DNA of 54,247 nt from a bacterium (GTDB lineage: Bacteria; Electryoneota; RPQS01): NCBI GenBank assembly GCA_026394155.1, contig JAPKYT010000128.1, positions 1-54,247 on the forward strand, in the 5' to 3' direction. Below the pieces are notes generated by a model, which was not told the DNA's origin, made no database searches, and was given only the letters and a program-made list of their open reading frames with translations. This document shows positions 3,088 through 5,096 of the stretch, piece after piece (position 1 is the stretch's first letter; each line of letters begins with the position of its first letter). The position numbers and the translations under genes were made by a program.

Positions 3088-3313
3088 CTAAGGAGCAATC
3101 TGATTCCCGTTCGCCGAGTCGGGTCTGTGACCCGCCCGGAATCGGGAAGACAGATAAGGTCGAAACCCTGAAAAACATCTTGCATAGCTTCCTCAGCACG
3201 CACGTCTCCTGAGTTTTCATATCGTCCTTGACCGAGCAGATCACGGACGGTTCTGTCTCCGCCGAGCGGGGTCGCCGACCCCGCCGGAACCGGGAGCGGA
3301 ACGCGGACCGTTG

Positions 3314-3387
3314 GGGCCTGTAGCTCAGTTGGTTAGAGCGCACGGCTGATAACCGTGAGGTCACAAGTTCAAATCTTGTCAGGCCCA
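3314..3387 (+). tRNA. tRNA-Ile(GAT), CCA not encoded
   Basis: Acceptor stem GGGCCTG/CAGGCCC, anticodon arm CACGG-CT GAT AA-CCGTG, T-loop GTTCAAAT. The acceptor stem is followed by ACGA, not ACCA. Confidence 0.96.
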
Positions 3388-3466
3388 CGAGAGTCATGGC
3401 CGGCGTTTTCGTCTCTTCGTCACGTCCGCTGCGAGGCCTGTCATCTTGGTGGCGCAGGAGGCGCAC

Positions 3467-4054
3467 ATGAATCATCGGTTTCTCTCGGCGGTTTTCAGGG
3501 GTTGTCCGGCGCGGTGGGTGACAGTTGCTCTTTGCATTTTGGCTTGCGGCGCTTTGCGCTGTCGGGTGATCGCGGCCGAGACGGCGTCTTCGATTCCGGG
3601 CGCCATTGACTTGTCGAAGGTCCGTTTTGAGATCGTGAAGAGCATGTTCGTCAGCAAGCTGGAAGGGATCAACGCCAGCTACACCGAGAACCAGCCGGAA
3701 AAATTCCGCGGACTGTTGCTCACGGTGCGCATAACAAAACCGGCGAGCGAGGCGCTGACCATTCACGGGCCCGACCTCGATCTGCACTACAACCACGGCG
3801 AGACCTACGACGTGCTCAATTGTCAGGGTCTGTCGGGTTTCTCGAAAAGCATGGATGTGGACCGGCCCATGCGATTGTGGAGCACGGGCATCGGCTCGGT
3901 GGCCACCGGAACGTCCACGCAGGATTCGGACGTGTTGTACATGGACGTGTTCTACCAGTATCTCGAGCCGGACACCAAAGACGTCTATCTGATGATCGCC
4001 CAGCCGACAGGATTGCACTACACCACCAGCGGCTGGAAAGCAGAGGAAAAGTAG
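3467..4054 (+). CDS. Hypothetical secreted protein (beta-rich) inside the 16S-23S spacer
   Basis: SD AGGAGG before ATG 3467, 195 aa, GC-rich third codon positions like the host genes, N-terminal hydrophobic segment. Confidence 0.8.
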   Translation: MNHRFLSAVFRGCPARWVTVALCILACGALRCRVIAAETASSIPGAIDLSKVRFEIVKSMFVSKLEGINASYTENQPEKFRGLLLTVRITKPASEALTIHGPDLDLHYNHGETYDVLNCQGLSGFSKSMDVDRPMRLWSTGIGSVATGTSTQDSDVLYMDVFYQYLEPDTKDVYLMIAQPTGLHYTTSGWKAEEK

Positions 4055-4129
4055 GCGGCGGACGGGGGACCACGCCGCGGCAAGCCTGAGTTCCGGGGGG
4101 AAATCCCGGTTCGGCTAACCGCCGCTCAC

Positions 4130-4205
4130 GGGGCGTTAGCTCAGCTGGGAGAGCGCCGGCTTTGCAAGCCGGAGGCCATCGGTTCGATCCCGATACGCTC
4201 CACCA
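4130..4205 (+). tRNA. tRNA-Ala(TGC)
   Basis: Acceptor stem GGGGCGT/ACGCTCC with the G3:U70 wobble, anticodon arm CCGGC-TT TGC AA-GCCGG, encoded CCA. Confidence 0.97.
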
Positions 4206-4245
4206 ACGGAGCGCGTGTTTTCGGAAATGTAACTGCCCGACTTCG

Positions 4246-4503
4246 TTGAAGAGTGACTTCGATTTCACGAAGCATGCCCTGAAGCGGCTGACGCACCGCA
4301 GGGAAATTGAGTTCGACTGGGTGGTCAGGTGTCTTGATGATCCCGACCATGTCGTGAAGGTCAGCCCGAACTCGTGGCACTTTCTGAAGCGTATTCCCGA
4401 GTTCGGGAACCGGGTTTTGAAGGTCGTGGTGAACCCAGCGACGCATCCCCCGAAGATTGTCACGCTGCACTTTGATCGCGATTGGTCTCGAGGAGCGGAG
4501 TGA
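4246..4503 (+). CDS. DUF4258-like putative toxin
   Basis: FTKHALKRL...REIEFDWVVRCLDDPD...KRIPEFGNRVLKVVVN...IVTLHFDR matches the DUF4258 pattern. The start (TTG 4246) is uncertain. Confidence 0.8.
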   Translation: MKSDFDFTKHALKRLTHRREIEFDWVVRCLDDPDHVVKVSPNSWHFLKRIPEFGNRVLKVVVNPATHPPKIVTLHFDRDWSRGAE

Positions 4504-4508
4504 GAACG

Positions 4509-4790
4509 ATGAAAGCGTATTGGGATCCTGAAGCCGATGCTGTCAGTTTCGATCTGTCGCGAGGAAAACCGGTAGTCGGCAGCGAAGTGGCTCCGGGCAT
4601 CATTCTTCACTACGATAAGAACGACAAAGTCGTCGAAATCGAGTTTCTGGATTTTTCCAAGCGATTCGAGAATCTCCGTTTCTGTTTTCCCCCCGTGGAC
4701 GGGGGGACGAAAGGGGGGTGGGATCGTGGGCAACCCGGCCGGAATCGGGGCATCAGAATCGCGCCTATCTTCTTGAAACTTCGCCGATAA
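4509..4790 (+). CDS. DUF2283-like putative antitoxin; C-terminus extended through a repeat
   Basis: MKAYWDPEADAVSFDL...SEVAPGIILHYDKNDKVVEIEFLDFS is the DUF2283 pattern. Starts 5 nt after the DUF4258-like gene. Confidence 0.85.
   Translation: MKAYWDPEADAVSFDLSRGKPVVGSEVAPGIILHYDKNDKVVEIEFLDFSKRFENLRFCFPPVDGGTKGGWDRGQPGRNRGIRIAPIFLKLRR
4686..4720. repeat. C6/G6 palindromic repeat (REP-like), copy 1
   Basis: CCCCCCGTGGACGGGGGGACGAAAGGGGGGT. Its reverse complement aligns with 23912-23950. Confidence 0.6.
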
Positions 4791-4930
4791 CGAAGTTCGT
4801 TTGGTCAAAAAATATTTCTGCCGTTGTGCGGGATCGCTGATCCCGCCGACGCAATACTGATCTTTTGAAACGCACATTCCTCGCCGTCGTCACGCGTGAT
4901 GCGGCGATGTGAAGGCCGGGCAACCGGCAA

Positions 4931-4943
4931 CGCTCTTTGACAA
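4931..4943 (+). promoter_or_regulatory. Spacer boxA
   Basis: CGCTCTTTGACAA, overlapping TGACAATTGGAAGCG, which pairs with CGCTTCCAATTGTCA after 23S (processing stem). Confidence 0.7.
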
Positions 4944-5096
4944 TTGGAAGCGACCGTTCTGTTGACGAGACAGAACGGGAGCGTCTCTCGAGAAAAAATG
5001 GCTATCGGTGCCGGGCCAAAAGTCGGCGCCAAGCCCAGTAGGGCTGAGATCGAAAGCTTTTCGGGATGACTTGCCTGTTTGGCAAGCAGGATTTTC

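Follow-up and report, generated by a model that had tools for sequence, protein, structure and literature searches.

In a bacterial cell no other units are transcribed as strongly, or tied as tightly to growth, as the ribosomal RNA (rRNA) operons, and their spacers are taken to hold transfer RNAs (tRNAs) and processing signals only. Protein genes within an rRNA transcript are known from the 23S intervening sequences (IVSs) of Leptospira and Coxiella, in which a small protein gene in the rRNA primary transcript is cut out by processing; such genes sit inside 23S and encode four-helix-bundle proteins. Here we describe a single-copy rrn operon of an uncultured sediment bacterium, located on contig JAPKYT010000128.1 (the window: 54,247 nucleotides (nt), the entire contig C23 of the 2.41-Mb assembly G000, which has 155 contigs and is 88% complete). 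Its 16S–23S spacer holds three protein genes, one for a 195-amino-acid (aa) protein between tRNA-Ile and tRNA-Ala and a pair matching the families DUF4258 and DUF2283, a putative type II toxin–antitoxin (TA) module, between tRNA-Ala and 23S. Unlike IVS genes, these lie in the spacer, flanked by tRNAs; modelling gives the 195-aa protein a beta-sandwich fold, and none of the three spacer proteins matches an IVS-type family in Pfam or NCBIfam.

The initial annotation, a first reading of the window from its letters, had called this arrangement a candidate for an undescribed system. That was overstated: protein genes in the 16S–23S and 23S–5S spacers of rRNA loci that are still operonic are a published category, reported for candidate phyla radiation (CPR) bacteria (Lui 2021, PMC8172020). 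The window falls under type C of that scheme (rRNA genes ordered on one strand, and a spacer that contains tRNA and protein genes), and in both cases operon status is judged by spacing and strand alone. The text of that study presents homing endonucleases as common cargo in tiny CPR genomes, and other cargo may stand in its table S1; here, by comparison, the host phylum is small and outside the CPR, its genomes span 2.2–6 Mb, the cargo consists of secreted-protein and TA genes, and the locus is documented down to its processing stems, its boxA and comparative data on selection. Outside subscription journals and supplements, we found no description of TA genes, or of a DUF4258/DUF2283 pair, in a 16S–23S spacer. 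What is new is therefore the non-CPR host, a foreign secreted-protein gene under selection between the spacer tRNAs, and the recurrence of TA modules in the slot between tRNA-Ala and 23S.

Spacer length sets the locus in a second published context. The preprint of Brewer et al. (bioRxiv 10.1101/705046) treats 16S–23S pairs more than 1500 bp apart as unlinked and gives 98.7% of pairs in complete genomes as lying at or under that distance, with a mean of 419 bp; by this rule our 2009-bp spacer makes the locus 'unlinked', although all operon signals are kept. It also gives 682 of 778 unlinked pairs as more than 6 kb apart, and unlike most of these, the pair described here is separated by 2 kb on one strand and retains its stems, boxA and both spacer tRNAs. 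The locus looks like an early or arrested stage of unlinking, not a separation, and may represent a first step toward unlinked rRNA genes. The length also matters in practice, as amplicon methods that span 16S, the internal transcribed spacer and 23S presume short spacers.

The operon and its signals

We placed rRNA genes with Rfam and tRNAs with ARAGORN, and assigned the operon the following features.

1360–1388, + strand: rrn promoter-like site (TTGACA, 17 nt, TATATT; 11/12 consensus matches)
1460–1471, + strand: leader boxA-like element GTTCTTTGACAA, read from the sequence; same 12-mer type as the spacer boxA
1473–1510, + strand: 16S processing stem, 5′ strand, pairing with 3176–3209
1552–3087, + strand: 16S rRNA gene (Rfam; sole copy in the assembly)
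3176–3209, + strand: 16S processing stem, 3′ strand, upstream of tRNA-Ile
3314–3388, + strand: tRNA-Ile(GAU) (ARAGORN; single copy among the 34 tRNA genes found)
3456–3461, + strand: Shine–Dalgarno site AGGAGG of the 195-aa gene (GGAGG kept in 4/4 aligned sequences)
3467–4054, + strand: 195-aa gene for a predicted secreted beta-sandwich protein of a rare family that has no Pfam model (homologues in the same slot, dN/dS, predicted fold)
4130–4205, + strand: tRNA-Ala(UGC) (ARAGORN; the single copy of this isoacceptor among the 34 tRNA genes found)
4246–4503, + strand: DUF4258 toxin gene (BECR-fold, putative RNase), TTG start, 85 aa (Pfam; homologue alignment)
4509–4790, + strand: DUF2283 antitoxin gene, 93 aa (Pfam; domain intact, tail repeat-derived from residue 57)
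4932–4943, + strand: spacer boxA GCTCTTTGACAA, ahead of 23S
5040–5092, + strand: 23S processing stem, 5′ strand, pairing with 8020–8065
5097–8014, + strand: 23S rRNA gene (Rfam)
8157–8273, + strand: 5S rRNA gene (Rfam)
8284–8315, + strand: operon terminator behind 5S (14-pair hairpin and T run; terminator scan)

The spacer occupies exactly 3088–5096 (2009 bp), and the order is 16S, tRNA-Ile, 195-aa gene, tRNA-Ala, DUF4258 toxin, DUF2283 antitoxin, boxA, 23S and 5S on one strand throughout, so that the canonical rrn order 16S–tRNA-Ile–tRNA-Ala–23S–5S is retained. Each of 16S, 23S, 5S, the 195-aa gene and the TA pair occurs once in G000. Spacers of the ten same-family genomes, the nearest of which share about 95% 16S identity with the host, measure 698–924 bp, with the tRNAs about 30–140 bp apart.

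An order of this kind could arise in assembly, if conserved 16S, tRNA and 23S segments caused sequences from different organisms to be joined. With its 155 contigs, the G000 assembly is fragmented and of metagenome type, and rRNA and tRNA segments common to many organisms in the samples reach depths of up to thousands. Among the Logan contigs of four runs (X1–X4) that we aligned to 2900–5300, no listed record spans all of tRNA-Ala or bridges the spacer and tRNA-Ile with 31 nt on both sides. Against a chimera, four separately assembled metagenome contigs from diverged populations repeat the order. L014 contains the 16S end, tRNA-Ile, the 195-aa gene and tRNA-Ala; L015 contains a complete 16S, tRNA-Ile and the gene; L016 runs from tRNA-Ile through the gene and tRNA-Ala into the 3′ spacer; and L013 runs from the gene through tRNA-Ala and the TA pair into the 3′ spacer. 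One of them thus spans tRNA-Ala from the gene to the TA pair, and in two the contig crosses tRNA-Ile coming from 16S. The 16S of L015 matches the window's at 99.15% (13 mismatches in 1536 nt), its protein at 78%. Single records of X1 and X2 cover 3314–4174 and 3315–4116 (tRNA-Ile through the gene, and in X1 into tRNA-Ala), 4147–4668 and 4161–4676 (tRNA-Ala into the TA pair), and 4679–5166 and 4677–5166 (spacer into 23S), the unique parts lying at an even depth of 5–11 throughout; in X3 and X4, parts of 3386–4114 are uncovered. Because diverged populations repeat the order, a chimera at the conserved tRNAs is very unlikely, and an assembly artefact is hardly credible as an account of the locus. 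On the doubt about contiguity raised at the outset, separately assembled contigs of related populations speak in favour of the contig.

The signals expected of a working rrn operon are in place around the inserts. The duplex between the 16S flanks has a predicted energy of −123.9 kcal/mol, compared with −96.6 ± 6.3 kcal/mol for shuffled flanks (4.4 standard deviations below), and that between the 23S flanks −140.7 compared with −93.8 ± 6.4 kcal/mol (7.3 standard deviations below). Since the 3′ strand of the 16S stem lies upstream of tRNA-Ile, all cargo is outside that stem, and the position of both stems puts all three genes in the precursor piece between them. Relatives' spacers carry a boxA of the form G(A/T/C)TCTTTGACAA, and a copy with one mismatch stands at the matching position ahead of 23S in 10 of 11 relatives. 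The site at 1360–1388 is the single strong + strand promoter-like site upstream of 16S. Scanning with Escherichia coli-type consensus models, from which this phylum's signals may differ, returned no + strand promoter-like site between 1388 and 8398 and only weak hairpins in the spacer, with no strong terminator; terminator-like sites over the entire region number 13, against 9.2 ± 3.4 in shuffles. Between the promoter at 1360–1388 and the terminator at 8284–8315 these scans therefore place nothing strong, although a dispersed 24-nt motif (4795–4818) also lies inside. The initial annotation had read the same gene order with three coding sequences in a spacer of about 2 kb, intact 16S and 23S stems, two boxA sites and no clear terminator in the spacer; Rfam, ARAGORN, reading frames and Pfam bear out the order, the duplex energies the stems, 1460–1471 and 4932–4943 the boxA pair, and the scan, within its E. 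coli-type scope, the lack of a terminator. The same scan gave no internal combination of terminator and promoter that would split 16S from 23S.

We consider it probable that the rrn operon is genuine and present in single copy, that insertions specific to its lineage have lengthened the spacer, and that the inserts are transcribed within the pre-rRNA and processed. The insertions would be of three kinds: a horizontally acquired 195-aa gene, a DUF4258/DUF2283 type II TA module behind tRNA-Ala, and small palindromic repeats. In E. coli rrn operons, a boxA-loaded antitermination complex passes weak hairpins. RNA polymerase starting at the rrn promoter with such a boxA-dependent complex would transcribe the inserts as part of the pre-rRNA. 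As tRNA-Ala and 23S need to be transcribed and no promoter-like site precedes them in the spacer, the polymerase should read through the 195-aa gene and the TA pair; this read-through would be obligatory because tRNA-Ile(GAU) and tRNA-Ala(UGC) are single copies among the 34 tRNA genes. Cuts by RNase III at both stems and by RNase P at the 5′ ends of the tRNAs, along with processing of the tRNA 3′ ends, would then release two messenger RNAs (mRNAs), one from about 3389 to 4129 with the 195-aa gene and a free Shine–Dalgarno site, the other from 4206 to the 23S stem with the TA pair. The initial annotation had likewise suggested that the pre-rRNA may double as mRNA, which would place the genes under growth-rate control. 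If the genes are expressed in this way, tRNA-type processing of an rRNA precursor can give rise to mRNAs, antitermination-modified polymerase can serve protein genes, and TA balance can be coupled directly to ribosome synthesis. No RNA run is among the 21 runs listed for the stretch.

The locus could instead be functionally split, with a 16S–tRNA-Ile unit that may or may not include cargo, an internal promoter (for example at 4795–4818) driving boxA–23S–5S, and cargo genes that use weak promoters of their own, which a consensus scan would miss. Type II TA modules normally have autoregulated promoters, which counts toward this view. So does the motif at 4795–4818 (+ strand), which has 13 copies in the genome, each oriented toward a downstream gene; in 10 of the 13 an open reading frame (ORF) of at least 60 aa begins on the same strand within 260 nt downstream. 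The spacer exceeds the 1500-bp limit of Brewer et al. for linked genes, and two phylum genomes, G041 and G054, show no 23S within 4.8 and 2.4 kb, so members of the phylum may be unlinked. On the other side, the spacer contains no + strand sigma-70-type site; the gaps that would have to hold cargo promoters are short (40 nt between tRNA-Ala and toxin, 78 nt between tRNA-Ile and the 195-aa gene), with no −35/−10 pair conserved in the four sequences; and both processing stems are intact. The motif is present in L013 and L016 and absent from the spacers of 11 relatives that keep boxA, and therefore is not the ancestral 23S promoter. We regard a split locus as unlikely, if still the strongest rival to a read-through operon.

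The 195-aa gene between tRNA-Ile and tRNA-Ala

The reading frame has start options at 3446 (TTG) and 3467 (ATG) and ends at 4054, giving 195 aa from the ATG. It begins 78 nt behind tRNA-Ile. Five close homologues are 76–93% identical and 194–195 aa long, and all four metagenome loci with a close copy (protein 78–93% identical) are rrn spacers with the gene between tRNA-Ile and tRNA-Ala. All six pairs among the window, L013, L014 and L016 have a dN/dS of 0.26–0.32, with dS of up to 0.50. The alignment shows that homologues keep their length and a hydrophobic N-terminus followed by an A-x-A motif; across five lineages, frame, length, signal peptide and Shine–Dalgarno site are preserved at a dN/dS of about 0.3. 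Conservation of frame and Shine–Dalgarno site, together with dN/dS, argues for selection on the protein and hence for expression. Judged by these comparisons, the 195-aa gene is real and under purifying selection, and most likely a working gene; among relatives that share at least 99% 16S identity it has become fixed under such selection. Hairpins in its flanks are no more stable than in shuffles (z −1.33 and +1.49), and no T run follows either.

An AlphaFold2 model from a 19-row alignment (predicted local distance difference test (pLDDT) 82, predicted template modelling score 0.70) shows an N-terminal helix, presumably the signal peptide, and a beta-sandwich. Foldseek with this model found no match in the PDB at E ≤ 0.001. 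VIA-align against 48,161 chains gave as best match the YcdA lipoprotein (4r4g; Z 6.1, root mean square deviation 3.8, 103 aligned), followed by 4les, 5bxg, 1lmi (MPT63) and 3qfg at Z 5.7–6.0; as these Z scores are below the tool's meaningful level, we limit the label to a beta-sandwich of the secreted-lipoprotein/MPT63 type, with no function attached. Pfam, NCBIfam and PADLOC contain no family for the protein, and its homologues are rare: of 1.84 billion cluster representatives, 84 match at E ≤ 0.001.

Within the phylum, the family profile matched one of 79 species genomes, G000 itself. Seventeen metagenome loci and four genome contigs, the latter labelled Bryobacteraceae and Planctomycetota, carry distant relatives (27–37% identical); ARAGORN placed no tRNA near the gene in any of these 21, and Rfam no rRNA in the 16 metagenome loci scanned. 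Presence in 1 of 79 phylum genomes, combined with distant homologues elsewhere that lie away from tRNA and rRNA genes, marks the gene as foreign to the phylum. It thus appears to have been acquired from outside and to have landed, or become fixed, between the spacer tRNAs. Comparison of the Ile–Ala spacer with those of four relatives for insertion borders found no convincing residual homology, and the protein was found in no plasmid. In two of the three distant loci examined, methyltransferase and FGE-sulfatase domains follow the 195-aa homologue, fused in a metagenome-assembled genome labelled Bryobacteraceae (L034, 6661–8715) and as separate genes in a metagenome contig (L025, 6702–8895). 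This neighbourhood may be conserved and could hint at the function of the family.

Toxin–antitoxin genes behind tRNA-Ala

The second frame opens at 4162, inside tRNA-Ala, and its first start past the tRNA is the TTG at 4246, 40 nt behind the tRNA end. The product scores 38.6 bits against Pfam DUF4258 (cut-off 25). Two homologues, 84 and 88 aa long and starting MKSDFDF and MKGDFDF, align with it from end to end, so that the TTG start is right and the toxin gene intact. Its neighbour matches DUF2283 at 45.2 bits (cut-off 23), and its ATG follows the toxin stop after a 5-nt gap, with GGAG 8 nt upstream. NCBIfam and PADLOC have no family for either protein, a sequence search of the PDB gave nothing meaningful (best E 0.0079), and no viral contig contained the toxin. 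A review counts DUF4258 among the BECR-fold (RelE/ParE or colicin-like) putative RNase toxins and lists it as an experimentally undescribed family (Gerdes 2025, PMC11980606). The same toxin-then-antitoxin order is annotated on two small cyanobacterial plasmids, pAL20118b and pAQ3, and homologues of the two families are paired on shared contigs in two further cases. The plasmid pairs resemble ours in their two Pfam families, in having the toxin first and in their adjoining or overlapping genes for proteins of 82–88 aa; they adjoin recombinase genes as presumed stabilisers, whereas our pair lies in an essential rRNA operon.

Complex prediction for the toxin scored 0.51 with the full-length, 87-aa antitoxin of L013, used in place of the window's tail-less allele, and the best of three controls scored 0.02. 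The score lends weak support to a complex: among 80 solved complexes 58 pass the mark, as do 2 of 110 mismatched pairs, and of those that pass, 7 of the solved complexes and both mismatches score 0.60 or under. The runs had at least 78% of contacts in common, and the partner's pLDDT was at least 62.

The pair varies among close strains. L013 has it, identical to the window over 4130–4676, and L016 lacks it, with about 52 nt between the CCA end of its tRNA-Ala and the shared 3′ spacer. The TA pair is thus strain-variable cargo, and, in line with the initial annotation, related rrn spacers hold variable cargo at the same slots, both here and in four other phylum genomes whose TA sets differ (below). 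The window's antitoxin allele carries one further change:

4673–4676, no strand assigned: deletion junction, 138 nt relative to L013 (its 1205–1342), with TCTC microhomology, from alignment with L013

Contigs of X2, X3 and X4 differ from the window past 4676, as expected of the undeleted form. The basic C-terminal tail encoded beyond this point is conserved in five of six homologues.

Such variability raises the alternative that the inserts are passive passengers, brought in by repeat-mediated or tRNA-targeted recombination, tolerated, and unproductive for translation, with the TA pair in decay. Dispersed palindromic repeats throughout the spacer, the presence or absence of the pair in close strains, the loss of a conserved antitoxin tail in the window and the variant in X4 with about 327 extra nt at 4818–4847 are all compatible with this. 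A passenger would not be expected to persist as the 195-aa gene has, kept in five lineages at a dN/dS of about 0.3, and the toxin gene is intact and identical across several samples; we consider passive carriage highly improbable.

Other points weigh against a read-through operon that expresses its cargo. We infer co-transcription, processing and translation alike from sequence, and both the promoter and the terminator scans are limited to E. coli-type consensus. Elsewhere in the genome the motif at 4795–4818 precedes genes at 12 sites, and in the spacer it could serve boxA–23S–5S as an internal promoter. L013–L016 may come from the window's own sampling campaign, and X1 and X2, which belong to one study, may be source samples; among the Logan records, none with 31 nt on each side is listed across the 16S/spacer boundary or across 4676/4677. 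The 138-nt deletion swaps the antitoxin's basic C-terminal tail for dispersed-repeat sequence, and the window's allele may be impaired and the pair decaying here. Finally, the window and L013 share an identical TA segment but differ by 6.5% in the DNA of the adjoining 195-aa gene, which fits either recent transfer or recombination, or a strain-mosaic consensus.

To place the spacer among those of the phylum, we measured lengths from 16S ends and BLAST matches to the first 504 nt of 23S, counting the 29 phylum genomes in which a single contig holds both spacer ends. Genomes whose 16S and 23S fall on separate contigs (G032, G052, G078), with 23S only (G034, G039, G048), with a partial 16S only or with no 23S on the contig (G041, G054) were left out, and for four values the 16S matches end 13 nt short.

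Family f1, 11 genomes: 698–924 bp, and 2009 bp in G000
Family f6, 9 genomes: 515–623 bp
Family f8, 4 genomes: 466–834 bp
Family f4, 3 genomes: 418–644 bp
Family f5, 2 genomes: 2004 bp in G053 and about 3355 bp in G044

Spacers above 1500 bp are confined to 3 of the 29 (G000, G053 and G044); in addition, G041 and G054 run 4.8 and 2.4 kb past tRNA-Ala to the contig end with no 23S and may be truly unlinked. TA-family genes recur behind tRNA-Ala in all of these. In G053, a HicB-like/HicA pair, a HicB-like gene and an unassigned 72-aa gene with a ParE-family toxin precede 23S. G044 has an unassigned 108-aa ORF with DUF2283, two HicB-like genes accompanied by HicA, then BrnT beside a nuclease-domain protein, and a 135-aa ORF before 23S; the 108-aa ORF was rejected as a DUF4258 member (BLASTP against the window's toxin E 0.91, no Pfam match). 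G041 holds five HicA genes, each with a HicB-like or unassigned partner, and an 87-aa ORF with DUF2283, for six pairs in the 4.8 kb to the contig end, and in G054 BrnT with a 76-aa partner and a membrane-protein gene lead to the contig end. In G052, by comparison, tRNA-Ile and tRNA-Ala are followed by 23S 352 nt on, with no cargo. In five of five expanded loci, drawn from two families (f1, f5) and from 32 genomes with the region behind tRNA-Ala assembled, TA-family genes thus come first behind tRNA-Ala and in rRNA orientation, with HicA, ParE, BrnT and DUF2283 matches above cut-offs. The genomes are kin, so this count is no statistical test; that the TA families differ between them argues for repeated settlement, against one inherited insertion. 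TA modules may collect in this slot because small terminator-free genes would be tolerated there and addiction would hinder their later loss.

A bolder extension is that the stretch between tRNA-Ala and 23S is the phylum's dedicated landing and expression site for TA modules: promoterless cassettes would be made solely with pre-rRNA, rrn shut-off on starvation would free RNase toxins (DUF4258, HicA, BrnT and ParE/RelE-type), and the 195-aa protein would be dosed by growth rate. We think this rather improbable; if true, the starvation part would amount to a hard-wired link between ribosome production and growth arrest.

Chromosomal integrons hold gene-cassette arrays rich in TA cassettes. Like integron arrays and tRNA-targeted islands, the loci behind tRNA-Ala gather co-oriented, promoter-poor small cassettes, many of them TA pairs, at one site by a tRNA gene. 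The array of G041 (L045, contig C2 of that genome, 676–3270) has a 58-nt direct repeat before each of its first six cassettes, spaced 397–556 nt apart and 15–25 nt upstream of the start codon. This repeat was not found outside the array, and the window has none such; as a candidate attC site it was rejected on inspection by eye, which showed no attC core motifs. No integrase was seen beside the arrays, in the course of work that included no dedicated integrase or attC-model search. A separate 54-nt repeat of G041 with a boxA-like CTCTTTGACAC is full length at 3782 and 5155, and its first part recurs at about 4316.

The cassette behind 5S and dispersed repeats

Behind 5S, a cassette at 8274–9840 (1.45 kb) is bounded on one side by that gene and on the other by a duplicate of its final 72 nt and terminator hairpin (9722 to about 9832; 87% over 114 nt). 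Its two genes are of envelope type and encode 181 aa and 180 aa, the latter a DUF4410 protein, behind a leader of 40% G+C with a promoter-like site at 8398–8425. G013, of another genus, has the same cassette behind 5S, again followed by a partial 5S copy (78% identical in DNA, 71% in protein), and the DUF4410 protein occurs in 1 of 23 other genomes of the family. By its layout the cassette resembles an insertion directed at the 3′ end of 5S, with duplication of this end; no integrase was seen at it, and no dedicated integrase search was made. The initial annotation had counted it with the spacer genes as part of a cargo-accepting locus. Cargo acceptance is supported, whereas inclusion in the operon is not: the cassette follows the terminator at 8284–8315 and so lies outside the rRNA operon transcript.

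Three dispersed repeats resembling repetitive extragenic palindromic (REP) sequences or miniature inverted-repeat transposable elements (MITEs), to which no strand is assigned, and the 24-nt motif complete the spacer.

3112–3148: REP/MITE-like palindromic repeat of a dispersed family, with matches on other G000 contigs and in same-genus G001
3258–3289: REP/MITE-like palindromic repeat, with copies on about 20 G000 contigs
4686–4719: REP/MITE-like hairpin repeat (C6...G6...G6), with copies on more than 35 contigs
4795–4818, + strand: dispersed 24-nt motif

Other copies of the motif lie on G000 contigs C10, C20, C22, C38, C49, C52, C66, C72, C92, C123, C134 and C138. At 22–24 nt it is always intergenic, with up to about 100 nt conserved upstream in two sub-families, and in many cases a C6/G6 hairpin repeat comes after it; the motif may represent a promoter, a 5′ leader element or a mobile element. 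Past 4818, L013 and L016 diverge from the window, making this a further variable slot ahead of the spacer boxA, and it is here, between 4818 and 4847, that X4 (record 30), from a related strain, has its extra sequence. The window itself is a mosaic: its 5′ spacer is near-identical to L014 and its TA segment identical to L013, while its 195-aa gene differs from that of L013 by 6.5% and from that of L014 by about 13%, as a result of either recombination among co-existing strains or the assembly's strain consensus. At the 5′ end of the spacer, the repeat at 3112–3148 is replaced by other sequence in L015, and a different, longer element occupies the position of 3258–3289 in L014 and L015. Short GC-rich palindromic repeats of this sort are scattered over dozens of G000 contigs and also occur in G001; they are strain-variable and flank the spacer's insertions and deletions.

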